Virus record (IMG/VR): IMGVR_UViG_3300042363_000251
Reading direction: 5' to 3' (one strand)
DNA: 64,000 nucleotides
From: an uncultured virus (IMG/VR IMGVR_UViG_3300042363_000251)
Taxonomy: Duplodnaviria > Heunggongvirae > Uroviricota > Caudoviricetes
Part shown: positions 2,884-53,860 of the stretch, piece after piece
Position numbering within the stretch: position 1 is the stretch's first letter
Layout: every line of letters begins with the position of its first letter
Program-made: the position numbers and the translations under genes
Notes under the pieces: model-generated
The model's database searches: none
Seen by the model: the letters and a program-made list of their open reading frames with translations, nothing else
Told to the model about the DNA's origin: nothing

Positions 2884-3564
2884 TTAAGGACGTTTTTCTA
2901 ACTTATAATTTTTACCCAAGCATTCGTTAAAAAGTAAGTGCATTAATGTTAGTGTACTAGGGTCATTGTAGTTAATAAAGTAATTGTTAGTCAAATATTT
3001 ACGATACCTTATACCCCAACGATTACTATTAACATAATCTTTTAATGCGCCACATAATTGTATATCTAGTGAATACTCATATCTTTTGCTAAAGTCTCTT
3101 AAATCCGATATCAAAGTTTCATTTACTCTGATACCTTTTAAGTATACTCTAAACTTAAAAGAGGGGTCTTTTGCAAAATACATTATTGCAGGCGGAGCCG
3201 GTAATGCTTGAATTATTTCTATGTTGTTATCAATTTGATACAACTCTTTTAAAATATCTATATTAGAAGTATAAACAGATAATGCTAAATGATCATGTAA
3301 AAAAGTAACTTCTTTATTACATGAATAGTTATTATAAAACCCTATTAGCTTTTCACATACATCTAAGTTGAGTTGAGTTAGCTTAGGTACTGGTACCTTA
3401 TACCAAGCAGTTGAATTATTTTTTCGTGCCATGCTGATCTTTCGTTTAAAATGATCCAAGTCCCTAGTGTTAGAAACAAATCTAACACCAAGGTACTTTA
3501 AAATCACACGATAACAAAACTTATTATAAAAAAGCTTATTACGCTCAGTCAGGGTTATGTTCAC
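2884..3564 (-). CDS. Hypothetical protein
   Basis: 226-aa ORF overlapping the clpA 3' end; two loosely repeated (F)x(Y/F)RVxL modules. Confidence 0.65.
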   Translation of the reverse strand: MNITLTERNKLFYNKFCYRVILKYLGVRFVSNTRDLDHFKRKISMARKNNSTAWYKVPVPKLTQLNLDVCEKLIGFYNNYSCNKEVTFLHDHLALSVYTSNIDILKELYQIDNNIEIIQALPAPPAIMYFAKDPSFKFRVYLKGIRVNETLISDLRDFSKRYEYSLDIQLCGALKDYVNSNRWGIRYRKYLTNNYFINYNDPSTLTLMHLLFNECLGKNYKLEKRP

Positions 3565-5824
3565 TACTAACCTCTATAATACCTTGATCATTAAGTTTAG
3601 CTGTTACTTTGTTGGTCACATTAAACACAATTTCATCATTTTCAATGATAGCCATGATGTTTGAATCTTTAATGCGTTCAAACAAAATCTTTTTACTCAA
3701 GGGTACTCTGATCATTTCATCAATCTTACGAGCCAGGGGTCTTGCTCCCATTTTGTTATCATAACCTTTATCAGCTAGATATTCAATAACCGGTTCGCTC
3801 AAGTTAAGAGTAATGTTGTGTTTTTCCAACAAGCTCTTTTTAACATCTTCAGTAAACTTAATAACAATCTTTTTAATAGAAAGCATATCAAGCTTTTTAA
3901 ACTTGCAAACCATGTCTAATCTGTTTCTAAACTCTGGCTTAAAAAAGTCTTTAAGTGCTTTATCATCTTCACCAGTTTTTTCTTGTGTACCAAATCCAAT
4001 GGCGTTCTTTTCGCTATCAGCCGAACCTAGGTTAGAAGTCAAGATAATAACAGTGTTCTTACAACTAACTTTCTTACCATTAGACCCAGTGATCGTACCT
4101 TCGTCAAGAATTTGCAAAAAGATATTAAAAATATCTGGATGTGCTTTTTCAACTTCGTCAAACAACATGATAGCATGTGGATTCTTGCTTAGATCAGAGA
4201 TAAGTCTTCCTCCCTGAACCTGACTATCACCGAAACCAACATATCCCGGAGGAGGTCCGATCAATGATGATACTGAATGCTTTTCACTGTATTCGCTCAT
4301 GTCGTATTTGAGCAATGGCATTTCTAGATTCTTACTTAAGAGTTTAGCCAATTCAGTTTTACCAGTACCTGTCGGGCCTAAGAACAAAAAGCTTGCAATG
4401 GGCTTAGTTTCATTACCAATGCCTGCAAATGATACATACACTCGCTCAAGAACCTTATCAACTGTGTCATCTTGACCGTATAGTTTTGATTTAATGCCCG
4501 CGTCCAAATTATTAATGCGTTCATAGTTGTTGTTTGAAAGCTTGTCAGCAGGAACCCCTGTATATTTTTCTACTTGTTCATGAATAAGCTCTTTAGTTAT
4601 TTTAGCTTCTTTGTTGCCTAAGACTCGTTGCTTGGCACACGCAGCATCTAGCAAGTCAATTGCTTTGTCGGGATTTTTGCGATCATGAATATAACGATCA
4701 GCACTTTCTACTGCTGCTTTAATAGCTTCTTCTGTAATATCTACAGAGTGAAAATCGTTTAATCTTGCTGACAATCCATTTAAGATTCTAATAGTAGAAT
4801 CATGTGATGGTTCATCAATTGAAATTTTGTAGAACCTGCGCATCAAAGCACGATCTTTCTCAAAAGATTCGTAAAACTCTTCCCAAGTTGTTGATGCTAT
4901 AACTTTTAAGTTACCTTTAGTAATAGCTGGTTTAATCATATTAGCAAAGTCAACTGATCCGTTACTTGTGCCGCCTGCTTGCATGGTATGTGCTTCATCA
5001 ATAAACAAGATAGCATTTTTCTTAGTTGCCAATGCTTCTAACACAGTTTTTACTTTTTCTTCAAAATCACCGCGATATCTAGAACCAGCAAGTAAACTAC
5101 CTATTTCAAGAGAATACAATTCAAATCCTTCTAGAAACTCGGGAATATCCCCACTAATAATAGCGTTTGCTATACCTTCAGCAATTGCAGTTTTACCTAC
5201 ACCTGGATCACCTACCATAAGTACATTAGCTTTAAATCTTTTAGCTAACACATTTACAATGTCATCTATTTCTTTTGATCTACCGATAACTGGTTCTAGT
5301 TTATTTTCTCTTGCTAATTGAGTAAGATTAATAGTAAACTCTTCCAAAATATCATCAGCTTGATTAGATGTTAAAGAAGTAGTGTAGTCGCCACCTTTAT
5401 AATTCTTTTGCCAGTGCTGCGCAAACTCATTTCTAAAAACACCATACTTTAACAAAAAGTAATGGGCATGTGAGTTGTTTTCAGAAGTTAAACTAAGATA
5501 CAAATCAATAGTAGTTACTTGTTTTCTATTAGTAAAAAGAACTTGGGTAACACTACGATTCATTGCTCGTTCTAATGTATTCGTTCTTTTGGGAGTAACA
5601 TTAAGTTCAACAGATTCAATAGAATGTAATCCATCTAAGTAAGAACTTATCTCATCAGTCATCAATCCTGTGTCTATTCCAAAAGAGTTTAAACATTTTT
5701 TAAAGGGAGGATGAATAACTAATGCAAGCAATAAATGCTCTAGTGTTACATACTCGTGTTTGCGGGATTTTGCTTGTTCTATTGCCTGTTCAATGATACT
5801 TTCAATTTCGGGACTGGTGTTCAA
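3545..5824 (-). CDS. clpA: ATP-dependent Clp protease ATPase subunit ClpA
   Basis: Clp N-domain (HEYVTLEHLLLAL), two AAA+ domains (GDPGVGKT/IDEAH and GPTGTGKT/FDEVEK), IGF ClpP-docking loop, GARPL; no ClpB middle domain; TTG start with AGGAG SD. Confidence 0.93.
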   Translation of the reverse strand: MNTSPEIESIIEQAIEQAKSRKHEYVTLEHLLLALVIHPPFKKCLNSFGIDTGLMTDEISSYLDGLHSIESVELNVTPKRTNTLERAMNRSVTQVLFTNRKQVTTIDLYLSLTSENNSHAHYFLLKYGVFRNEFAQHWQKNYKGGDYTTSLTSNQADDILEEFTINLTQLARENKLEPVIGRSKEIDDIVNVLAKRFKANVLMVGDPGVGKTAIAEGIANAIISGDIPEFLEGFELYSLEIGSLLAGSRYRGDFEEKVKTVLEALATKKNAILFIDEAHTMQAGGTSNGSVDFANMIKPAITKGNLKVIASTTWEEFYESFEKDRALMRRFYKISIDEPSHDSTIRILNGLSARLNDFHSVDITEEAIKAAVESADRYIHDRKNPDKAIDLLDAACAKQRVLGNKEAKITKELIHEQVEKYTGVPADKLSNNNYERINNLDAGIKSKLYGQDDTVDKVLERVYVSFAGIGNETKPIASFLFLGPTGTGKTELAKLLSKNLEMPLLKYDMSEYSEKHSVSSLIGPPPGYVGFGDSQVQGGRLISDLSKNPHAIMLFDEVEKAHPDIFNIFLQILDEGTITGSNGKKVSCKNTVIILTSNLGSADSEKNAIGFGTQEKTGEDDKALKDFFKPEFRNRLDMVCKFKKLDMLSIKKIVIKFTEDVKKSLLEKHNITLNLSEPVIEYLADKGYDNKMGARPLARKIDEMIRVPLSKKILFERIKDSNIMAIIENDEIVFNVTNKVTAKLNDQGIIEVSSEHNPD

Positions 5825-9072: not shown

Positions 9073-10002
9073 TTAACTCCCTGTTAGCTCAGCAAGTGTA
9101 GCTGCTAAACTTATTTCAGGTATACCCACAAGAGGAAGACTAGCCAAGCCATTTCTAATAGTGATAATAGACTGATCTTTCTTATCGTTAGTCTTACCCC
9201 AAAGATCAAGATTGTTGTACATCCACCGATATGTATTTTCTACTCTTGTTGGATAAAGAGCAATGTACTGCATTAGTTGCTGTCTACCTTCAAGAATCTT
9301 ACCTGTTTTAAATAACTGTGCAGCTTGAGTCAATAACTCTTCTTCACCATTACCTTCAGAATGAGGAGGTTGTAATTTTCCTGTACCTGAGTTAGCTTGT
9401 AGCTGATTCAAACACTTGCGCAAATCTGGATAACAGCCGCGAACATAGCTATCTAAGTCTTCTAGTGTAAAATCTATGTTTTCGGTAACAAGAACCGTTG
9501 CTGCTCTAGCAGTAAATTCAGTAATATCAGGTTTTGCAATGTGAAACTTAGTACATCTGCTTTCTCTTAGTGCAGGAATAATCTTGTGCTCATAGTTACA
9601 AGTAAGAATAAATCTTACTGTATTAGCATAAGCTTCCATATCGTTTCTAAGTGCTGCTTGAAACTCAGGAGAAGTGTAATCAGCTTCGTCTAGCAAGATA
9701 ACTTTGAATTTACCAAAAGGCATTGTTTCAGCAAAGTTATTGATTTTAGTTCTAACAATACCTACGCCGTTATCTCTAGAAGCGTTAATCTCCATTACAT
9801 CGTATTCTTCTACGCCAAGCTCTTTGATTAGAACTTTTGCCAGTGTAGTCTTACCGGTGCCTGGATCACCGGATAACAGTAAGTGAGGGATCATTCCATC
9901 TTTGATCCATTGATTAACGATTTGTTTTTGTCTTTCATCAACAAAAACATATTCATTTACAGATTTAGGCCTGTATGCCTCAACCCAAAGTCTATTCTTC
10001 AT
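9073..10002 (-). CDS. gp44: Clamp loader AAA+ subunit (RFC small subunit / T4 gp44-like)
   Basis: LWVEAYRP, GDPGTGKT, EINAS, ILLDEAD, ESRC. Confidence 0.93.
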   Translation of the reverse strand: MKNRLWVEAYRPKSVNEYVFVDERQKQIVNQWIKDGMIPHLLLSGDPGTGKTTLAKVLIKELGVEEYDVMEINASRDNGVGIVRTKINNFAETMPFGKFKVILLDEADYTSPEFQAALRNDMEAYANTVRFILTCNYEHKIIPALRESRCTKFHIAKPDITEFTARAATVLVTENIDFTLEDLDSYVRGCYPDLRKCLNQLQANSGTGKLQPPHSEGNGEEELLTQAAQLFKTGKILEGRQQLMQYIALYPTRVENTYRWMYNNLDLWGKTNDKKDQSIITIRNGLASLPLVGIPEISLAATLAELTGS

Positions 10003-10005
10003 TAA

Positions 10006-10311
10006 TTATCTCTTGATTGCTTCGTATGTTACAATGTGTGCTAGTCTCTCACCCAAATCTTGTTCGGATGTAACTATGTATAAACTGGTTTGACTGTCGT
10101 GGTTTTTATCATAACTACGTGTTTCTACTACATGCCCGCCGTCAGCTTTGTACACAGTAAACCTAGTACCGTTAGAGTCAATAGAATCAACTGACTTAGG
10201 CGATAGTGAATTTGCTATTGAAGGTCTATCCCCTCTTGTTTTTTCGTATTCACGCGCATTTTCCCACGCTTCACGGCACATATTTGCAAACCATTTCTTA
10301 AAAAATTTCAT
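10006..10311 (-). CDS. Hypothetical protein
   Basis: 101-aa ORF within the operon. Confidence 0.65.
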   Translation of the reverse strand: MKFFKKWFANMCREAWENAREYEKTRGDRPSIANSLSPKSVDSIDSNGTRFTVYKADGGHVVETRSYDKNHDSQTSLYIVTSEQDLGERLAHIVTYEAIKR

Positions 10312-10676
10312 TAGATTCCCTTATCACTCATGTTATAGTCTTCAACTTTTTCATCGCTTACTAATAGTATATCTTTATTGTCTACTTTGCGAACAATTTG
10401 GACACCTTCAGCGTCTTCAATCTTTACACCTCTAGTCCATCTTCCGTGTGCGATATAAATCCATTTCCCGACTTCTAAATCTTTTTGATCTGGACCGATC
10501 GCATAAACTCTAGCCCAACGAGGTCTGATACCAGAATTTTTCATATCATCATTTGGAAGAATAAGACCTGCATGACTCAATCTTTCACCAAATTCCATTT
10601 GATGAACAACTACAGAATCTTTAAGAGGTAAAAACTCTTCTACTTGAATAGCATTCGTATTTTTAGCTGTTAACAT
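10311..10676 (-). CDS. Divergent GroES-like co-chaperonin (start revised to 10676)
   Basis: PLKDSVVV, GLILP, VYAIGP, LEVGKWIY, KDILLV follow the Cpn10 pattern; AAGGA SD precedes the ATG at 10676. Confidence 0.75.
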   Translation of the reverse strand: MLTAKNTNAIQVEEFLPLKDSVVVHQMEFGERLSHAGLILPNDDMKNSGIRPRWARVYAIGPDQKDLEVGKWIYIAHGRWTRGVKIEDAEGVQIVRKVDNKDILLVSDEKVEDYNMSDKGI

Positions 10677-10683
10677 AATATCC

Positions 10684-10971
10684 TTACTTAATAATTGCCA
10701 AAATTTCATCTTCTTGTAGAATGCGGTACTCTTGATCTTCTACTTTTACTACTTGACCCGCGCCTTGAACGAAAAGAACTTTGTCACCCTCATTAACTCC
10801 GGGTACTACAAAAGTGCCATTTTCTAAATAAGTTCCAGGACCTACAGCAATTACGATACCTTGATTAGGTTTATCTGCTGCCGCGCCTGCTAAGATAAGA
10901 CCGCCTGCACTCTTTTTTATTGTTTCAACTTCTTTAACTACTATTCTGCCTTGTATTGGTTTAATCTTCAT
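10684..10971 (-). CDS. groES: Co-chaperonin GroES
   Basis: MKIKPIQGRIVV, SAGGLIL, GIVIAVGPG, GDKVLF, EDEILAII. Confidence 0.93.
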   Translation of the reverse strand: MKIKPIQGRIVVKEVETIKKSAGGLILAGAAADKPNQGIVIAVGPGTYLENGTFVVPGVNEGDKVLFVQGAGQVVKVEDQEYRILQEDEILAIIK

Positions 10972-11313: not shown

Positions 11314-11820
11314 CTATTTTAAAAACTCATTAATTGATATTTGATAGTATAAACTATTTATCCTATGTATCCCTATTAGATATAAAACAAAACTAGCAAT
11401 ACTACTACCTCTACCTACACCCCATACTATGTTATGTTTACGCATAGTGTCTACTAAATATTTTAAGTATTGAAGAAGAATAAACATGTCTCGTTCTTGA
11501 AACATAATCAGTTCTTCTCCTGCGCGTTGTAATTCTTCATCAGTTTTGCATTGCTCTAAAATCCATTTAGCAATATCAAAATTTTTATATTCTTCAGGCA
11601 TGAACCATTCGGTTGATCTTATGTTGTCAAATTCTTCAATAGTTTGGTCACTGGTTTGATATTCAAGAAGTTCTGGTAGTTTTTGTAAATCTAGTTCTGA
11701 ATCAAAGTTAATTACTTCTTTTACAAGTAATGATTTTAACTGCCGAGTAGGGTCAGTCATGTACAAATTACATATGTCTTTTTCGTTAAAGATGTGCTGA
11801 CCGAAGTTATCAATAATCAT
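11314..11820 (-). CDS. dnaE: DNA polymerase III alpha (DnaE) N-proximal palm fragment
   Basis: QRAGEEL...YLVDTMRKHNIVWGVGRGSSIASFVLYLIGIHRINSLYYQISINEFLK matches the DnaE pattern RL..EL...GPGRGS.AGSLV.Y.L.IT..DP....L.FERFL. Confidence 0.85.
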   Translation of the reverse strand: MIIDNFGQHIFNEKDICNLYMTDPTRQLKSLLVKEVINFDSELDLQKLPELLEYQTSDQTIEEFDNIRSTEWFMPEEYKNFDIAKWILEQCKTDEELQRAGEELIMFQERDMFILLQYLKYLVDTMRKHNIVWGVGRGSSIASFVLYLIGIHRINSLYYQISINEFLK

Positions 11821-41107: not shown

Positions 41108-41806
41108 CTAAACGAACTGAGTGTAGTACTGCTCTAAACGTTTGAACCATTCGTTAACATAGTGGTCATACTCTATACCTTCTATAATAAATTCTTGATA
41201 CTCGTTGTCTTTAGTACACATAAGGATAACTCCCTTGCGTATGTTAGTGTTAAACATTTCATTATGTGCTGATCCGTATGCAGCTAATTGGATAAAATAA
41301 TCTTCAATCCATTCACGTTTCTTGGCTTTATTAGCTTGTTTAAAGTCCATGATAGCTTCTTGATTATCATGAACTCCTGCTAAGTCAGTAGTACCTGCAT
41401 ACATTTCTGGAAAATAAAGACTGGCTTCAGTAGCCCAAAATTCATTACATTTAGACAAACCTTGTTCAATAATAGACTGAGCCATTAAATGACTTTGTTG
41501 ACTATAGGGGTTGGAGCCAGGATCACCGGTAGCACCAAGCTTTACATAATTCTCTAACCACTTGTGCATACGAGTACCGCGACCAGCAGCTTCGGTAGTT
41601 ATAGCTTGTGCTTGTTTATGACCTACACGGTTACGCCAGTTTTGTAATGCTTTTTTTGCTTCTTCAGGTTTAGTAGCGTCTAAAATAGTTGTTACAGAGG
41701 GGACAGCGAATCCGTCGGGAGTTATATACTTTCTAGCTCCGTTTAGCGTTTCTCTTTTTAGTTCTTTATAGTTAAATTTGTTAGGATTGTACATTGGGTT
41801 CATCAA
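41108..41806 (-). CDS. PD-(D/E)xK exonuclease (phage exonuclease / Cas4-like superfamily)
   Basis: PSVTTIL, RGTRMHKWLE, EASL, YAGTTD, IMDFK, YFIQLAAY. Confidence 0.88.
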   Translation of the reverse strand: MMNPMYNPNKFNYKELKRETLNGARKYITPDGFAVPSVTTILDATKPEEAKKALQNWRNRVGHKQAQAITTEAAGRGTRMHKWLENYVKLGATGDPGSNPYSQQSHLMAQSIIEQGLSKCNEFWATEASLYFPEMYAGTTDLAGVHDNQEAIMDFKQANKAKKREWIEDYFIQLAAYGSAHNEMFNTNIRKGVILMCTKDNEYQEFIIEGIEYDHYVNEWFKRLEQYYTQFV

Positions 41807-42123
41807 ATTGTAAAACTCTCACCACAGCCGCATCGGGCTTTTTCATTCGGGTTTGTAAATTCAAATCCTTCGTTAAAATCTAATTTCTTATAATCTATTG
41901 CTAGACCAGAAACATAGACAAGTGATTTTTCAGTTATAAAAACAGAAAAGGTTTCAAACTTAAATTCATGATCAGTTGAATCAGCTACATCAACGAATTC
42001 TAAGACATAAGAAAATCCACTACATCCTGTGGATTTTACACCTATTCTTATACCGAGGCCTGAACCTCTTTTCTCTAGTTGTGATTTTACTCTGTCTGTC
42101 GCAGTATCGGATAATTTAATCAT
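41803..42123 (-). CDS. iscA: A-type Fe-S cluster carrier IscA/HesB
   Basis: GCSGFSY and NPNEKARCGCGESF. Confidence 0.93.
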   Translation of the reverse strand: MIKLSDTATDRVKSQLEKRGSGLGIRIGVKSTGCSGFSYVLEFVDVADSTDHEFKFETFSVFITEKSLVYVSGLAIDYKKLDFNEGFEFTNPNEKARCGCGESFTI

Positions 42124-46843: not shown

Positions 46844-48262
46844 TTAATTATTCTTTAAGGAGTTTAGCATGTTTCTTAGCTTAGAACCTTGAACATCTGC
46901 TACTACTTTTTTCTCAGATTGTTGAATTTCACCAGTGTTAGCATCAATAGTTTCATTTTGAGATACTGTACTTACAGTTTTAATTTTGTTCATAATATCT
47001 GTAGCGGATTGACGATACCCAGCATTTTCATCACCGCCTTCATCTGTAATTCTCATAGTATCAATGTTATATTCTAAGTCAATCTTTTGACCAACACCAG
47101 TAGAACTACGTGATTTCATACACTGAATTTGATACTTGCCTCGCTCTTTCATTGATCTGCTAGTAAAGATACCAAACACATAGTCAGCAGTGTTAATCTT
47201 AGAAATACCACCTGCAATATGACTATGATCAAATTCAATTTCTTCTACAGCCGATCTGTTTAGCTGTGATGCTGTAACCATTAAAACACCTAACTCTTTA
47301 GACAAGTTTCTTAATTCTTCACTAACATACTTGTCTTTGATAAACTGATCATTAGGATTTACTTTAACACTAACAGGCATTACTAGATCCAAGTAATCAA
47401 TCATTACAAAGTCTATTAGCATACCTGTTTGTATTTGTACTTCTTTAATATAACTTCTGATTACGTTTACGTTGCTTTGTGCAGGAAGACCTTTAACACG
47501 ATACTTACCTGACTTTTTAGCAGCCATTTTTACTTTTAATTCTACTGTGTCTAAGTCTTTACGAATATCTTTAGTGCTCATGCTAGTTAACATAGCATCA
47601 GTTCTTAAAGCCGTTAGCTCTTCAGACAATTCAAGTGTAATATAAACACCGCTTAATCCTTGTGCTAAAAAGTTCACAGCCAAGTTCATCATTACAAGTG
47701 ACTTACCTGATCCTGAACCACCTGCAAAGATGTTTAGTTCGCCCCTAGACATACCACCATACATAACTTTGTCTAGTTGAGGCCACCCTGTGCTTACTTG
47801 ACCGCCTTGATTAAAGTATCTGTTTAATCGTTCTTTAGGATCAGCAAAGTAATCTGTACCATAATCACGCATTAAAGAAATTTGTACCGCATCTTTGATC
47901 AGTTTTTCAACTGGATCATATTCACCCTTTTCTAATAACTCTGCTGCTTTTAAGATTGCTCGTTCTAGTTCTTGTCTTTTTGTAAAGTGTTCAAACTCAG
48001 TTAAGAAAAACTCGGTATGCCCTGCTGAGTCAAGTTCAGGGATTAGTTCAATTTCTATACCAGTAGTAGCTTTGATTTGCGTAGGATCAGGCAACACATT
48101 GTATTTTTGTGAATGTTCTACTATAAACTCTGCTGCCGCCCTAACTGATCTGTCAAAGTTTAGTGGGTTCATGATGTTCATTACCCTAGTATATAACTCA
48201 GGGTTAGTGATCATCATACGCAAAAATAGCGTTTGTACTTCGGGGTTAAATTCTTTTAACAA
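46844..48262 (-). CDS. gp41: Replicative DnaB-like helicase (T4 gp41-like)
   Basis: STGWPQLD, GGSGSGKS, YITLEL, IDYLD, TASQLNR, KSR. Confidence 0.93.
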   Translation of the reverse strand: MLKEFNPEVQTLFLRMMITNPELYTRVMNIMNPLNFDRSVRAAAEFIVEHSQKYNVLPDPTQIKATTGIEIELIPELDSAGHTEFFLTEFEHFTKRQELERAILKAAELLEKGEYDPVEKLIKDAVQISLMRDYGTDYFADPKERLNRYFNQGGQVSTGWPQLDKVMYGGMSRGELNIFAGGSGSGKSLVMMNLAVNFLAQGLSGVYITLELSEELTALRTDAMLTSMSTKDIRKDLDTVELKVKMAAKKSGKYRVKGLPAQSNVNVIRSYIKEVQIQTGMLIDFVMIDYLDLVMPVSVKVNPNDQFIKDKYVSEELRNLSKELGVLMVTASQLNRSAVEEIEFDHSHIAGGISKINTADYVFGIFTSRSMKERGKYQIQCMKSRSSTGVGQKIDLEYNIDTMRITDEGGDENAGYRQSATDIMNKIKTVSTVSQNETIDANTGEIQQSEKKVVADVQGSKLRNMLNSLKNN

Positions 48263-49235
48263 GTTTTCGTTTCCTCATTTCTATTTTAATTTTGCTCATA
48301 GTTGCTGATTGTATAATACTTAGCAACACAGGTAATTTACCATATTTTACTACAGCTTCGTTTACATCTTTAATTGGTTTACCTTCATTGTTCAGTCCCC
48401 ATTCAGGTAAGCTTATTTGATATCCTAGCTCCATAGCTAGATCACATAACTCTAATCCTGTTTTGTCTTGATCAGGAACTACTATAATAGTTCTGTTTAA
48501 CCTTCTTAACAATTCTTGTTGTTCTAAACTGATTGTACTGGTACCCAAAGCACAACCATCTATACTTAGTGCATCAAATATACCTTCAACAACGATGCAA
48601 ATAGACCATTCAGGTTTTTGAAAGTCATAACCAAACAAATATCCTGTTGGTTGATCATTAAGATACTTTGGTTTTCTATCGTCTAAAAATCTACTTGTAT
48701 TACCAACAATCGTTCCTTTGTATGTAAAAGGAACAATGATTCTGTTTGAGTTTCGTCCGATATCTTCCGTAGTAACTAAAAAAGGATATTCATCGTGTTT
48801 TATTTTTCTATTATTTAAGTAGTCTATAAATCTAGTGTGTTTTGAATTGTTAATATCTAACACTTCACTATTATCGGGAAGTTCTTTTTCTTTAAAGTTG
48901 ATAGCTACATTTCTTACTGCGGGTGTAATATAGTCTAATATATCTTTATTTTGTAAACTTTCTAAACCGATCTTTGTGATCAAGCTTTCATCAGCGCCGC
49001 ACCATTTTAGAAATAATTTAGTGTTTGTAGATAACGGTTTACCCAACTCAAATCTACATTTGAAATGGCAGTTAAAGCAACTGTATGTAAAGTTGTAGTT
49101 GTCTTTGATTAAACCGCCACGCATTCTTTTATCGGGCTTATGTCCACGATAATGACAACAGGGTGAATTAAATGAAACCCAGCCCTTTGCTGTTGTTTTT
49201 CTTTTGCCGGGAATAATTGTTAATATATCAAACAT
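48246..49235 (-). CDS. gp61: DNA primase (T4 gp61-like)
   Basis: N-terminal Zn-binding Cys motifs, RIIVPF, PKYL, TOPRIM VEGIFDA and PDQD, KDVNE. Confidence 0.9.
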   Translation of the reverse strand: MFDILTIIPGKRKTTAKGWVSFNSPCCHYRGHKPDKRMRGGLIKDNYNFTYSCFNCHFKCRFELGKPLSTNTKLFLKWCGADESLITKIGLESLQNKDILDYITPAVRNVAINFKEKELPDNSEVLDINNSKHTRFIDYLNNRKIKHDEYPFLVTTEDIGRNSNRIIVPFTYKGTIVGNTSRFLDDRKPKYLNDQPTGYLFGYDFQKPEWSICIVVEGIFDALSIDGCALGTSTISLEQQELLRRLNRTIIVVPDQDKTGLELCDLAMELGYQISLPEWGLNNEGKPIKDVNEAVVKYGKLPVLLSIIQSATMSKIKIEMRKRKLVKRI

Positions 49236-50124: not shown

Positions 50125-50505
50125 ATGAGTGCAGAAGATTTTTTCAAAAAATTAAGTGATAATCACCCGTTTATAACTGTGTGTCATTATGCCAGCCAAG
50201 ATTATGTAGGTATAGTACAAAATCGGGACGATATAGTTACCTCTATTTACGATTATGGATCAATAGTAGAGATAGGACTAAAAGAAAAGTTTTTAGAACT
50301 AGGTGACATTTGGTGGTGGGAATCAAATAGACTTATACCAATCAATATATTTTTGAAAGAAGATTGGGCCGTGTTCAAGCCATACTTACGAACATTTAAT
50401 AACAAAAGTTTAGCAATATTACACGGACCTACTGTCAGCATGACTGATTTAGGTAAGCGTAGATCAAAAAGAAGATCAATTACTTTAGTTAAACGCCTTT
50501 TCTAG
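50125..50505 (+). CDS. Hypothetical late protein
   Basis: 126-aa ORF; CATAAATA upstream; WWWESNRLIPINIFL. Confidence 0.7.
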   Translation: MSAEDFFKKLSDNHPFITVCHYASQDYVGIVQNRDDIVTSIYDYGSIVEIGLKEKFLELGDIWWWESNRLIPINIFLKEDWAVFKPYLRTFNNKSLAILHGPTVSMTDLGKRRSKRRSITLVKRLF

Positions 50506-50508
50506 CTC

Positions 50509-51000
50509 TTATCTTTTTTCTCTTATCTTTTTTCTCTTTTCTTTTGCTCGTTCTAGTACAAGCTTGCCTACTCTATCATCAAAGCATATAGAATTTAAAT
50601 GATCCAGCTCATGCTGATAGACCCTAGCCATTAAACCATTAAATTCTTGTTGTACTTTCTCACCAGCAACATTGTAATACTCTACTGAGATATCTTTGTA
50701 TCGTTCTACATACATCCAAAGATCAGGAAAGCTCAAGCATCCTTCTTGCTCTCTCACTCTTTCGCTACCTGAGATAATTTCTGGATTGATACATGCTACT
50801 AAATGATCAGAATTACCCATAACAAATATGCGTTTAGCAATACCGCACTGAGGCGCAGCTAAACCTATGCCGTTATGTAAAACCATTAGCTTGGACATAG
50901 CCTTAACTAATTCACTGGGATCACCGTCTTTTTCCCAGTCCCACGATTCAGCTACTTCTCTTAGTACTTCGCTATCTTCAGGTATAAGTTTAAGATCCAT
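50509..51000 (-). CDS. def: Peptide deformylase
   Basis: GIGLAAPQ, EGCLS, QHELDHL. Confidence 0.95.
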   Translation of the reverse strand: MDLKLIPEDSEVLREVAESWDWEKDGDPSELVKAMSKLMVLHNGIGLAAPQCGIAKRIFVMGNSDHLVACINPEIISGSERVREQEGCLSFPDLWMYVERYKDISVEYYNVAGEKVQQEFNGLMARVYQHELDHLNSICFDDRVGKLVLERAKEKRKKIREKR

Positions 51001-51571
51001 GTTGTTCCTCTTTTATTAAATTCATATGTACGGCAACCAACCATGCATAACCCAAACTATGTGACTTTTTAAAGCTATAGCCATCACTGCCTTTGTCCCA
51101 CACTGTTTTGTTTACTTCTTGCCAAGTTTTTCCTATCAAATGACGTTTCGCTGGTCTTATTACTGCTAAGAACATAGCTAACCGTGGTATACTATCTATT
51201 GGTTCAGGCATCTTTCTAATCGTATCATACTGACCATTCAAGTGTATAAGTTGTTCTACTATATCTCGCTTAGTTAGCATAGTCCAATCAGGTTCACGCA
51301 TCAAACTAATCAAGTGTTCTTCACTTTTTACTTTTTCGTAAACGTGAACATTTAAGATATCTAACTTAAAGTATCCCCTTTCTTCTGCCTCTTCATAAGA
51401 AATAGCTGCAATTTCATTTATAGGATCATATGGTATGTTGCATGGATATATACCAGAAGCGTGTTTTCTAATAGGTGTAATATTACGCATAGAAGCAGGT
51501 ATATGTTTGATCTTTTCCAAGATCAAATCTCTATTACCTACGTCAATGTCTACGTCAAAGTTTAATTTCAC
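50990..51571 (-). CDS. dnaE: DNA polymerase III alpha (DnaE) minimal catalytic palm/fingers fragment
   Basis: DVDID, KHASGIY, EERGYFKLDIL, LAVIRP, YSFKKSHSLGYA. Confidence 0.88.
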   Translation of the reverse strand: MKLNFDVDIDVGNRDLILEKIKHIPASMRNITPIRKHASGIYPCNIPYDPINEIAAISYEEAEERGYFKLDILNVHVYEKVKSEEHLISLMREPDWTMLTKRDIVEQLIHLNGQYDTIRKMPEPIDSIPRLAMFLAVIRPAKRHLIGKTWQEVNKTVWDKGSDGYSFKKSHSLGYAWLVAVHMNLIKEEQHGS

Positions 51572-52134
51572 GGTTTCATTAATCCAGCGGCTATTAACTT
51601 TTGATAAGCATCTTGTACTACAATCGCTTGATGTTCGGCGTCTTCTACTGCATTGTGCGTAGTTTTAGTACCATACTTTTTATCTTTTAGTTTCACACCG
51701 GCTATTTCAAATAGTGTTCTAGTGTCTCTTACTGTATAGAAAGGCCATGGTATTGGATTTGGTTTATCAGTTAAAGTTTGTCTAAACGCTGTTTCCATAA
51801 CTACTACGTCAAAAGGGGCACCGTTTGACCACACAGCATCTTGATTCCAACAATAATGATATAACACTTCCATGCATTCTTTTAATGACATTCTACCCTG
51901 TTCATTAAACGCTGCGTTTAGTGCTTCAGGAGATTGTTGCGACCACCATCTGAGAGTATCTTCATTAATGATTCTGTTATATACTTCAGTTTGATCTTCA
52001 ATAGTAGGTTTTAGTTCTAATCTATCAAGCACACCAGTTCCTTTTGGGTTAAACTTTACTACACCAATAGTAAGAATAACACAATTGGGTGATGTGTCTA
52101 AAGATTCTATATCTATCATCAAATGAGAGGGCAT
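51568..52134 (-). CDS. DEDDh 3'-5' exonuclease
   Basis: LMIDIESL, WSNGAPFD, RDTRT, HNAVEDA. Confidence 0.88.
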   Translation of the reverse strand: MPSHLMIDIESLDTSPNCVILTIGVVKFNPKGTGVLDRLELKPTIEDQTEVYNRIINEDTLRWWSQQSPEALNAAFNEQGRMSLKECMEVLYHYCWNQDAVWSNGAPFDVVVMETAFRQTLTDKPNPIPWPFYTVRDTRTLFEIAGVKLKDKKYGTKTTHNAVEDAEHQAIVVQDAYQKLIAAGLMKP

Positions 52135-52135
52135 A

Positions 52136-52435
52136 TCATTCCCATCTTAGTTTAGCTAACATATATTCTTTATCGGTCTTTAAGTAAATAGCGCGTTTGC
52201 TGTCCTTGCTATCGTTAGCCCAAGCCCATATTGGCCAGTCTTCGTCATGTGCCCAAGCATCGTGTAACTCATAACTACGTCCCCAAATTACTTCACACCA
52301 TTGTCTAATTTCATTAAACGTCTTGATTTGGTCCCGAGAATTCATACCATGAGTCTCTATCATATATTGATAAATATTACCGCCGTTGTATCTTCTGTCT
52401 ATCTTTTTAAATGTTATTATTCGCATAGTTTCCAA
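52136..52435 (-). CDS. Small hypothetical protein, LRWE-ending family
   Basis: Ends YMLAKLRWE. Confidence 0.65.
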   Translation of the reverse strand: METMRIITFKKIDRRYNGGNIYQYMIETHGMNSRDQIKTFNEIRQWCEVIWGRSYELHDAWAHDEDWPIWAWANDSKDSKRAIYLKTDKEYMLAKLRWE

Positions 52436-52668
52436 TGGACATATATTTTATCGTTTATTGTAACACGTTTACTAGTCAACCACCAATCTTTTAGGTAACC
52501 TTTGTTAGGATATTTTTCCCATAACCAATCTTCTAAAGCTCTAGTCCAGTCACACTGAATAAAGATTTGTTCTTGCCATTCATTATTAATGAAAATCTTT
52601 TTCCTGATTTTTCGGTTGGTAGGAACATAATCAATTATGTCTACATGATCGTAATAATTGAAACCCAT
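52417..52668 (-). CDS. Small hypothetical protein, LRWE-like family
   Basis: Ends YVHWKLCE. Confidence 0.6.
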   Translation of the reverse strand: MGFNYYDHVDIIDYVPTNRKIRKKIFINNEWQEQIFIQCDWTRALEDWLWEKYPNKGYLKDWWLTSKRVTINDKIYVHWKLCE

Positions 52669-52926
52669 TTATTCCCACCTCAATAAAAACCATTCATAAT
52701 CTTTAGACTGTTCAAACGCTATACGATTATCAAACCAACGATGTTCACCTATAGTGTTTTGTTTTACCCATTCTATCACTTCATCAAGTTGCTGATAAGA
52801 AATTATTGCACCATGCCACCCACTTGTGATACACAAATTGTATAATAACTCTTGATCTAAACGATTACGAATATTATTCGCCATCTCAGTTAGAATCTCA
52901 TCATGCTCGTTTTGTGACAAGCTCAT
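52669..52926 (-). CDS. Small hypothetical protein, LRWE-ending family (start revised to 52926)
   Basis: ATGA overlap with the upstream gene; ends YEWFLLRWE. Confidence 0.65.
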   Translation of the reverse strand: MSLSQNEHDEILTEMANNIRNRLDQELLYNLCITSGWHGAIISYQQLDEVIEWVKQNTIGEHRWFDNRIAFEQSKDYEWFLLRWE

Positions 52927-53147
52927 TCCCACCTCAGTTTAAACCAAATTCTATGTTCTTCTATTGGTACATACCAAATATCAGATATACTAAACAATTC
53001 GGAACCTTGGTATTCTATCTTTATATCACAATCTTCAGCCCACTTCCAAACTTGTTTTCGCATGGTCCAATGTGAACATACTAAACAACTTTTGGGTATG
53101 TTTAGTTGCTTTGATACATCATCTAATGAATATATCTGTTCGCTCAA
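52923..53147 (-). CDS. Small hypothetical protein, LRWE-ending family
   Basis: TTG start; ends RIWFKLRWE. Confidence 0.6.
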   Translation of the reverse strand: MSEQIYSLDDVSKQLNIPKSCLVCSHWTMRKQVWKWAEDCDIKIEYQGSELFSISDIWYVPIEEHRIWFKLRWE

Positions 53148-53149
53148 CT

Positions 53150-53860
53150 TTAATACCCAGCTTCTTTCAATAGTTCTTTAACTTGCTTTACTTGTTCTTT
53201 GTTTCGCAAAAACTTTAATGCCCATTGTTCAGGATTGATATAATCAAAGATCAATCGTTGTAAACCTTCATCTAAACTTTCAATAAATTCAATACCCGAT
53301 TGACTTTGATATAACATCCATGCACTGATCTTGCCGTTAGTAATCTTATAACAAATTTTATTCTTACTACCATATCGTAAATAGTCACCAGCTTTAATAT
53401 TATCTGGTTCTGCTAATTTAATAGTAGTTTCAATGCTTCTAGCAATAGCATCAAGTGGATCTTCTTCGCGCAAGTAATAAATCAAGTAACGATTGTATAC
53501 TTGATCACTAGTCCAACTATCAATAGAAATTTTATTGTCTAGCAACCAATCTAAGTATCTAGTAATATTGATAGCATTAATATCAACACAATAGTTACCA
53601 AATTTAACAAAGGCTATGTAATATGCGCTTTTTACAAAGTCCAAATAAGTTTTTGGTTTTCTTGAGTTTGTATTCTTTTTGTAAAAAGCAAGCCAGCACT
53701 GAAACGCTATTCTGTTTCCAGCGTTATCTTTTTCATGCACTCTACGCTTAGTTTCGCACATGTGTTTAAACATTGACTGTTCGCGTTGGAATTGCTTATT
53801 ACAAAAGTCGCAAACAAATTCAGTTACCTGAGTCTCTTTCATACTGATTAAGTTCATCAT
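53150..53860 (-). CDS. Hypothetical protein with an N-terminal Zn finger
   Basis: FVCDFCNKQF......KHMC. Confidence 0.65.
   Translation of the reverse strand: MMNLISMKETQVTEFVCDFCNKQFQREQSMFKHMCETKRRVHEKDNAGNRIAFQCWLAFYKKNTNSRKPKTYLDFVKSAYYIAFVKFGNYCVDINAINITRYLDWLLDNKISIDSWTSDQVYNRYLIYYLREEDPLDAIARSIETTIKLAEPDNIKAGDYLRYGSKNKICYKITNGKISAWMLYQSQSGIEFIESLDEGLQRLIFDYINPEQWALKFLRNKEQVKQVKELLKEAGY

Follow-up and report, generated by a model that had tools for sequence, protein, structure and literature searches.

The window analyzed here is a 64,000-nucleotide stretch of DNA, bases 62362-126361 of a 266,967-bp virus record of the IMG/VR database with an estimated completeness of 76%. Two short genes lie 39.2 kb apart on the same strand of the window, and their products, of 193 and 168 amino acids (aa), resemble two successive parts of the catalytic domain of the alpha subunit of bacterial DNA polymerase III (Pol III). 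They are referred to here as the C-chain and the N-chain. The C-chain gene is overlapped at its start by a gene for a stand-alone 3'-5' exonuclease of 188 aa and at its 3' end by a peptide deformylase gene (Table 1). An initial annotation, made from the sequence, had taken the C-chain for a miniature DnaE catalytic core coupled to the exonuclease and had paired it with the N-chain; the three open reading frames (ORFs) concerned all exist as it described them.

Two chains of one polymerase palm

The C-chain matched no Pfam family at E<=1. Among the PHROGs it matched phrog_11778, a 'DNA polymerase' family of about the same length as the query, at 6.5e-56. A profile was built from 83 diverse homologues, 28-74% identical to the window protein, and it matched Pol III alpha of E. 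coli (5fku_A, 1.8e-5), Taq and M. tuberculosis, with E-values of 1.8e-5 to 1.7e-4 for the three. Pol III alpha accounted for 9 of the 11 PDB sequences listed at E<=1. Residues 54-140 of the C-chain aligned with E. coli alpha 538-641, from the KxD strand (GLVKFDFL) to FRPG, and residues 151-180 with 739-769 (YGFNKSHSAAYA, YGFNKSH). Over these stretches the DnaE motifs stand in the order initially read from the sequence; the KHASG motif lies outside them. The DIDID strand was aligned to E. coli alpha 402-418 below threshold, and the register of D6, D8 and D10 against D401, D403 and D405 is uncertain by up to 2 residues, this sole sequence alignment being sub-threshold.

D6, D8, K69, D71 and P140 were invariant in 83/83 C-chain homologues, and D10, H37, G40, R139, K142, H171 and A176 were conserved in at least 90% of them. 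The catalytic aspartates D6, D8 and D71 are thus kept in all of these homologues. The ratio of non-synonymous to synonymous substitution rates (dN/dS, Nei-Gojobori) was 0.045-0.10 in the 7 of 12 C-chain pairs in which dS was unsaturated. The check for decay proposed in the initial annotation therefore gave purifying selection.

The AlphaFold model of the C-chain had a mean predicted local distance difference test score (pLDDT) of 95.6 and a predicted template modeling score of 0.89. The suggested comparison with Pol III alpha structures by Foldseek returned DnaE in all 13 best rows. By VIA-align, the 15 best entries were all DnaE or PolC (Z 9.7-6.3), and the next, unrelated, entry had a Z of 3.4. 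The alignment with Taq 3e0d (Z 9.7, root-mean-square deviation 3.6) comprised 190 residues and extended over Taq residues 458-839; Z was 9.5 for PolC 3f2b and 8.8 for E. coli 2hnh (residues 399-784). Residues 1-193 of the model superpose on E. coli alpha ~397-784, so that ~386 residues are compressed into 193. The spacing between the DxD and KxD strands is 57 residues in the C-chain against ~150 in E. coli. In E. coli alpha the PHP domain reportedly comprises residues 1-270, the palm 271-432 and 511-560, and the thumb 433-510.

The N-chain matched PF07733 (DNA_pol3_alpha) above the cut-off (1.2e-8), its residues 89-167 corresponding to profile positions 16-94 of 260, and phrog_11127 (DNA polymerase), again a family of about the query's length, at 1.2e-39. 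G134, G136, R137, G138, S139 and S140 were invariant in 50/50 N-chains. In VIA comparisons, residues 74-160 of the N-chain model matched E. coli alpha 279-409 (Z 5.7) and Taq alpha; the five best rows were all Pol III alpha, and the next had a Z of 2.5. Estimates of selection are poor for this chain, since only 2 of 9 pairs had an unsaturated dS, and their dN/dS values (0.14 and 0.21) are unreliable. The N-chain carries the nucleotide-binding motif GVGRGSS. The 193-aa chain is therefore an incomplete catalytic core; of the initial 'catalytic core' the retention of the catalytic aspartates stands, and its completeness does not.

For the model of N-chain residues 1 to ~73, no solved structure matched. 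These residues are nonetheless conserved (D4, G7, Q8, P24 and others) and form small beta strands in the model, and NCBIfam DnaE models reach weakly into them (model positions ~239-247). They may be a vestige of the boundary between PHP and palm.

Together, the two chains cover E. coli alpha ~279-784 in ~290 residues. The break between them falls at E. coli ~395/397, within the Pol-beta-type palm, where it separates the helix of the GS motif from the DxD strand; the N-chain end ...EFLK lies directly ahead of the DxD strand of full-length enzymes. All 12 aligned stand-alone N-chains terminate in EFL[KR]; the break point is precise.

A natural fusion of the two halves was also found. An exhaustive HMMER search over 1.84 billion representatives gave 356 matches at E<=0.001, of which 150 were listed, and one among the matches listed, P0151, is a single protein of 375 aa. 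Its residues 64-180 match N-chain 53-168 (39% identity, 8e-23), stopping exactly at the C-terminus of the N-chain, and its residues 191-372 match the C-chain, with ~10 residues joining the halves. PF07733 spans the junction uninterrupted (residues 97-207 = profile 12-121, 4.8e-16). A word-indexed search for fused forms among proteins of 339-2000 aa gave 0 of 237 candidates scored, which is weak evidence since the exhaustive search did find P0151. In a quick C-chain tree, unrooted and mostly poorly resolved, the C-half of P0151 grouped with the split forms P0182 and P0213 with a Shimodaira-Hasegawa-like approximate likelihood ratio support of 91, under the mark of 95. This hints, but does not show, that P0151 is a secondary fusion.

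The two chains occur together. By tblastn against 50,697 phage records, the C-chain was found in 96 and the N-chain in 95, with equal counts in 9 of the 10 genera listed (Klebsiella, 11 against 10). Five long IMG/VR contigs were found through their N-chain, and 5/5 also encode the C-chain, which answers the co-occurrence check called for at the outset. On these contigs the genes are separated by 41.6-45 kb (three), ~51 kb across the record ends (one) and 128 kb (one), and none of 80 N-chain loci had a C-chain within 3 kb. In PA5oct, as in the window, the C-chain gene precedes the N-chain gene on the strand, so that the gene order is permuted relative to the protein order. Both chains are abundant: a word-indexed search gave 7268 C-chain clusters among 7295 candidates and at least 7992 N-chain clusters of 8000 candidates scored.

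These results show that one palm has its nucleotide-binding motif on one polypeptide and its metal-binding aspartates on another, and that both polypeptides are conserved, co-inherited and under purifying selection. The fold matches, the fusion P0151 and the co-occurrence (96 against 95 records) all bear out the initial pairing, and we put the probability that the two genes encode the halves of a ~360-aa, two-chain polymerase of the C-family type at about 80%. Several points weigh against this reading. The best Foldseek E-value of the C-chain is only 6.2e-3, which is modest, and the N-chain model has a moderate pLDDT of 78.4, falling below 50 over the last 16 residues. P0151 is a singleton on one 2415-bp ENA contig, and no relative of it was found in viral or JGI metagenome contigs. 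No biochemical or genetic work on a split mini-Pol III was found in the literature searched. As to activity, template dependence, the kind of nucleotide used (dNTP or NTP) and a function at the fork are deduced from homology and gene neighborhood. An enzyme stripped of its thumb and of every processivity element could also act outside replication, even without a template. The low confidence over the last ~40 residues of the isolated N-chain would itself fit a segment that folds on its C-chain partner.

The exonuclease beside the C-chain gene

The 188-aa protein matched PF16473 (Rv2179c-like) at 1.2e-34, with 120 bits against a cut-off of 27, its residues 4-174 corresponding to profile positions 2-174 of 177, and phrog_255 at 9.6e-43. 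The DEDDh motif pattern can be read in its translation as D8-x-E10, D109 and H160-x4-D165. The identification of the neighbor as a DEDDh exonuclease was therefore correct, and by the same match and residues it resembles T4 DexA and the Rv2179c-like enzymes. It is not of the DnaQ/epsilon type, PF16473 being its sole Pfam family at E<=1, with no match to PF00929. The nearest solved chain was a 227-aa 'Exodeoxyribonuclease' (8kel_A, 7.5e-4), which we take from its length to be T4 DexA. The window protein is 24-36% identical to its homologues in cultured phages.

The exonuclease and the mini-polymerase could form a functional pair, the former acting as an epsilon-like proofreading subunit in trans. 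The mini-polymerase has no nuclease of its own, and the two genes are co-oriented and overlap by 4 nucleotides. The overlap is GTGA, a GTG start with a TGA stop (...CCG TGA AAT...), and not ATGA as first stated. The exonuclease is under purifying selection (dN/dS 0.07-0.15 in 6/6 pairs, Nei-Gojobori). Its gene lies upstream of the C-chain gene in 16/16 loci whose C-chain is at least 68% identical to that of the window (directly adjacent in 13 and ~1 kb off in 3), several of these loci being near-identical copies of one phage. An Rv2179c-type gene lies within 0.8 kb of the C-chain gene in 5 of 6 cases, namely in the window record and in 4 of the 5 related long contigs.

The distribution of the two exonuclease types is complementary. 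A DnaQ-type (PF00929) exonuclease was found in 0/6 of the window record and the five related long contigs, two of which are at least 92% complete, against 5/5 distant genomes that encode one. The window record has no homologue of the epsilon-like protein of 121Q. In Rak2-like phages the DnaQ-type gene lies ~5 kb upstream of the C-chain gene; in 121Q, where uvsY and the UvsW-type helicase gene flank it, it is gene 9, and the per-genus counts of its orthologues equal those of the C-chain in seven enterobacterial genera. The pattern covers two clades and may reflect a single evolutionary event. It also has an exception, the 335-kb, 95%-complete IMG/VR record G003 (behind locus L062), in which both polymerase halves and neither type of exonuclease were detected with Pfam.

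Beyond the close relatives, the association does not hold. The exonuclease was absent from the C-chain flanks in 14/14 metagenomic loci whose C-chain is at most 51% identical to the window's, and in 4/4 cultured phages (PA5oct, Atu_ph07, 121Q and Vibrio 2.275.O). Its family was found in 548 phage records, compared with 96 for the C-chain, the T4-like matches being annotated dexA, and both kinds of exonuclease are common in phages that have no mini-polymerase. The canonical docking site of epsilon is the PHP domain, which is absent from the record. The deformylase gene, whose start overlaps the 3' end of the C-chain gene by 11 nucleotides, is packed just as tightly, so that tight packing here implies no partnership. 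Deformylase was present in 12 close loci, whereas L021-L023 and each of the 18 distant loci lack it; it is an insertion in a narrower subset of the clade and no part of the polymerase.

Thus, the DEDDh exonuclease is a separate, widespread phage enzyme that was inserted beside the C-chain gene in the clade of the window. Its adjacency is lineage-specific and is no conserved feature of the polymerase family; the coupling proposed initially does not hold as a property of the system. A working proofreader pair is unlikely.

Related polymerases and possible role

The split minimal Pol III alpha has already been described by sequence analysis, and the window copy is a rediscovery. Iyer et al. (2021, Viruses 13:63, PMC7824862) reported that group 2.2 jumbo phages encode a Pol III alpha that is both minimal and split. 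According to their description, two genes far apart encode its stand-alone parts, an N-part that binds NTP and a C-part that binds Mg2+ and template, with a family B polymerase (PolB) alongside and the other Pol III domains absent (PMC7824862). The window record agrees in all four respects: the halves are distant, the motifs for NTP binding and for Mg2+ and template binding are divided between them in the same way, PolB occurs without other Pol III domains, and the source is a jumbo myophage. The phage group is the same as well, the tblastn matches including Atu_ph07, which is named in PMC7824862, 121Q, GAP32 and PA5oct; the equation with the families of Iyer et al. rests on their description and on these shared phages. 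The window copy differs in being metagenomic and in having the lineage-specific exonuclease and deformylase at the C-chain gene, and nothing essential differs. The main text of PMC7824862 ties no exonuclease to the split enzyme and uses the word once, with regard to group 1. The initial statement that no characterized function was known stands as far as experimental work is concerned; the published description of the split enzyme was not recognized there.

The N-piece was noted as a 'truncated' alpha subunit in the passages concerned of the CBB and Atu_ph07 phage papers, and the term 'DNA polymerase' has 0 occurrences in the PA5oct omics paper. In the account of Weinheimer and Aylward (2022, PMC9123017), PF07733 is the only gene unique to PGC_A that is found in at least half of its phages; PGC_A is the largest marine jumbo-phage cluster there, with PF07733 as its one marker gene. 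A precedent for split polymerases is the PhiKZ enzyme, likewise a jumbo-phage polymerase from two separate genes, whose parts DNAP-N and DNAP-C are reported to form a stable 1:1 complex (Basu et al., bioRxiv 2026, PMC13648687). As reported there, it differs in belonging to family B and not C, in coming from another phage group, in being the main replicase and in having been experimentally characterized.

The Pol-beta-type palm, the GS motif, the aspartates of the DxD and KxD strands and the RPG and KSH motifs of the fingers are common to the mini-enzyme, DnaE (E. coli 2hnh and 5fku; Taq 2hpi and 3e0d) and PolC (3f2b), with no difference in order or fold. The mini-enzyme has ~360 aa in two chains, whereas DnaE has ~1160 aa in one. 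It has no PHP domain, just ~73 N-chain residues standing ahead of the palm; little of the thumb is left, the fingers end at E. coli ~784, and beta-binding, OB and tau-binding domains are absent. PF02811 (PHP) gave no match in the record, with positive controls at 14/14. The absence of PHP, most of the thumb, clamp-binding and OB domains, stated at the outset, is thereby confirmed. NCBIfam DnaE models score 14-28 bits against equivalog cut-offs of 434-1806. Of the canonical characters of the C family, the palm with its GS motif and three aspartates is present, spread over two chains, and PHP and a thumb, fingers and C-terminal domains in a single chain are not.

The search for a B-family replicase that the initial annotation called for was positive. 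The same record encodes a PolB of 906 aa with PF00136 (1.6e-40) and an exonuclease domain of its own (PF03104, 2.8e-22); no family A polymerase and no second PF07733 match were found in the record, which is an estimated 76% complete. Since a PolB with its own exonuclease domain is present, the mini-polymerase is not the main replicase and is most likely accessory.

In the mechanism proposed here, neither chain would be active alone, and both would assemble into one catalytic domain of ~360 aa. The N-chain would supply the hG[GS]-type nucleotide-binding motif (GVGRGSS), and the C-chain the three metal-binding aspartates D6, D8 and D71 and the finger motifs RPxK and FKKSH; the assembled enzyme would have neither PHP, most of the thumb nor clamp-binding, OB and tau-binding parts. 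We consider it somewhat probable that this assembly is a template-directed accessory DNA polymerase. Given the absent thumb, clamp-binding and OB parts and the complete PolB, synthesis would most likely be distributive and of low processivity, accessory to the family B replicase. The C-chain gene always lies beside the primase and helicase genes and the N-chain gene near that of the clamp loader, which suggests that the enzyme acts at the fork or in repair. It might extend or hand off primers at the DnaG/DnaB module, or else fill gaps and serve in repair. Iyer et al. suggest that the split Pol III alpha may cooperate with PolB in the synthesis of one strand or in repair (PMC7824862).

A fuller version of this role would have the two-chain polymerase extend primers or fill lagging-strand gaps at the DnaG/DnaB module alongside PolB, like B. 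subtilis DnaE with PolC, and require a DEDDh exonuclease in trans, DnaQ-type in the Rak2/PA5oct-like phages and Rv2179c/DexA-type, from the same operon, in the clade of the window. This combination as a whole is rather improbable. If true, it would make the pair the smallest known C-family polymerase and part of a natural two-polymerase phage replisome.

The two-chain enzyme could instead be another nucleotidyltransferase of the Pol-beta fold, making primers, tailing, working without a template or using NTPs. The Pol-beta superfamily is rich in non-templated transferases, and the near-complete loss of the thumb (57 against ~150 residues between the DxD and KxD strands), the absence of clamp-binding and OB domains and a complete PolB replicase in the same record would all suit such an enzyme. 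Finger motifs specific to the C family are retained, however: R139, K142 and FKKSH align with FRPG and FNKSH of E. coli. All structural matches above Z 3.4, extending across the full 193 residues, are replicative C-family polymerases, and the C-chain gene sits in a helicase-primase-recombination cluster. Such a transferase is accordingly quite doubtful.

That both fragments are functionless, decaying remnants of a captured bacterial dnaE, as their shortness, the 39 kb between them and the word 'truncated' in the CBB phage paper might suggest, is refuted, unless the data are artefactual, by clusters numbering thousands with conserved length, a precise break at EFL[KR], invariant catalytic residues (83/83 C-chains, 50/50 N-chains), a C-chain dN/dS of 0.045-0.10 and synteny conserved from Agrobacterium to Vibrio phages, and the chance of it is negligible.

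As a two-chain C-family polymerase, the pair would be the smallest form in which the fold of the bacterial replicative polymerase occurs naturally, split within its catalytic domain, in a family whose clusters run to thousands for either chain. Activity of the paired chains would reveal the minimal requirements of C-family catalysis. It would also bear on why phages with PolB retain a second polymerase, and on the proposal of Iyer et al. that such forms resemble ancestral Pol III (PMC7824862). To that description the present analysis adds a natural fused form, the clade-specific exonuclease operon complementary to the DnaQ-type, and the figures on selection and conservation.

Neighboring genes and source of the DNA

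Table 1. Features of the window discussed in the text (positions counted from the first base of the window; E-values follow the family matched).
Feature	Position	Strand	Length (aa)	Remarks
ATP-dependent protease	3545..5824	-	759	phrog_4871, 8.6e-235
RFC-type clamp loader	9073..10002	-		phrog_168, 7.8e-70; near neighbor of the N-chain gene
GroES and gp31-like head-morphogenesis protein	10311..10971	-		phrog_3188 and phrog_931
N-terminal chain of split minimal Pol III alpha	11314..11820	-	168	~73 family-specific residues (given as 11314..11534), then first half of palm with GVGRGSS; ends ...EFLK
Fe-S cluster biosynthesis protein, HesB/IscA-type	41803..42123	-		PF01521
DnaB-type helicase	46844..48262	-		phrog_19, 1.4e-71
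DnaG-type primase	48246..49235	-		phrog_47, 8.7e-31
Small conserved gene	50125..50505	+	126	phrog_11637, 5.5e-30
Peptide deformylase	50509..51000	-	163	PF01327, 6.6e-40
C-terminal chain of split minimal Pol III alpha	50990..51571	-	193	GTG start; DxDxD strand, KxD strand, vestigial thumb, part of fingers (RPxK, FKKSH)
Stand-alone DEDDh 3'-5' exonuclease (Rv2179c-like/DexA-like)	51568..52134	-	188	
Four tandem small ORFs	52136..53147	-	99, 83, 87, 74	
C2H2-like zinc-finger protein (N-terminal finger)	53150..53860	-	236	phrog_11058, 7e-57

The surroundings of the C-chain gene keep a conserved order: the gene for the 236-aa zinc-finger protein, the C-chain gene, the 126-aa gene on the opposite strand, a structural protein, the primase and DnaB. 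Of the 34 loci compared, 27 have the 236-aa gene upstream of the C-chain gene; the remaining 7 have upstream flanks of at most 4 kb, mostly taken by other genes or ended by the contig edge. In 32 loci the 126-aa gene stands beside the C-chain gene and is read from the other strand; the two exceptions, L010 and L016, end short of its position. The 236-aa protein matched zf-C2H2_6 at 3.5e-5, under the Pfam cut-off; it gave nothing named in Pfam and only unnamed viral clusters in Atlas, and the 126-aa protein gave nothing named in either. Both genes are kept from Agrobacterium to Vibrio phages. The two proteins are candidate partners that might supply the absent thumb or processivity functions.

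The primase is syntenic with the C-chain in the loci that extend that far, and primase and DnaB are annotated alike in PA5oct, 121Q and Vibrio phage 2.275.O. At the other locus, the order up431-up79-N-chain-dn112-gp31-like-(o101)-clamp loader was found in 67 of the 80 N-chain loci, counting flanks that reach the clamp loader.

The window has the gene content of a large myophage. In a PHROG scan of its 65 ORFs, tail sheath, tube, head-closure and adaptor proteins were identified, together with RIIA/RIIB, PhoH, MazG, GroES, a gp31-like protein and a UvsW-type helicase, in addition to the clamp loader, the DnaG-type primase and the DnaB-type helicase. The nearest cultured-phage matches of both polymerase fragments by tblastn were in Phosso, PA5oct, Atu_ph07 and 121Q-like phages. 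The phage of origin is a jumbo myophage from the Rak2/121Q/PA5oct/Atu_ph07 assemblage, which is group 2.2 of Iyer et al. (2021). The 267-kb record is labeled 'provirus' by IMG/VR; the genes of the window are only of the lytic jumbo-phage type, and no integrase or host flank was seen in it.

The ATP-dependent protease, the Fe-S cluster biosynthesis protein and the peptide deformylase are host-like auxiliary genes. The GroES and gp31-like genes, both co-chaperonin-like, lie side by side, and the GroES copy was found in just 2 of 80 related loci. The four tandem small ORFs between the zinc-finger and exonuclease genes matched no PHROG or Pfam family, and among the loci compared the homologues of the 99-aa ORF are confined to close relatives. 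The products of three of them terminate in ...(L/K)RWE and that of the fourth in ...WKLCE, so that the four may form a paralogous array.

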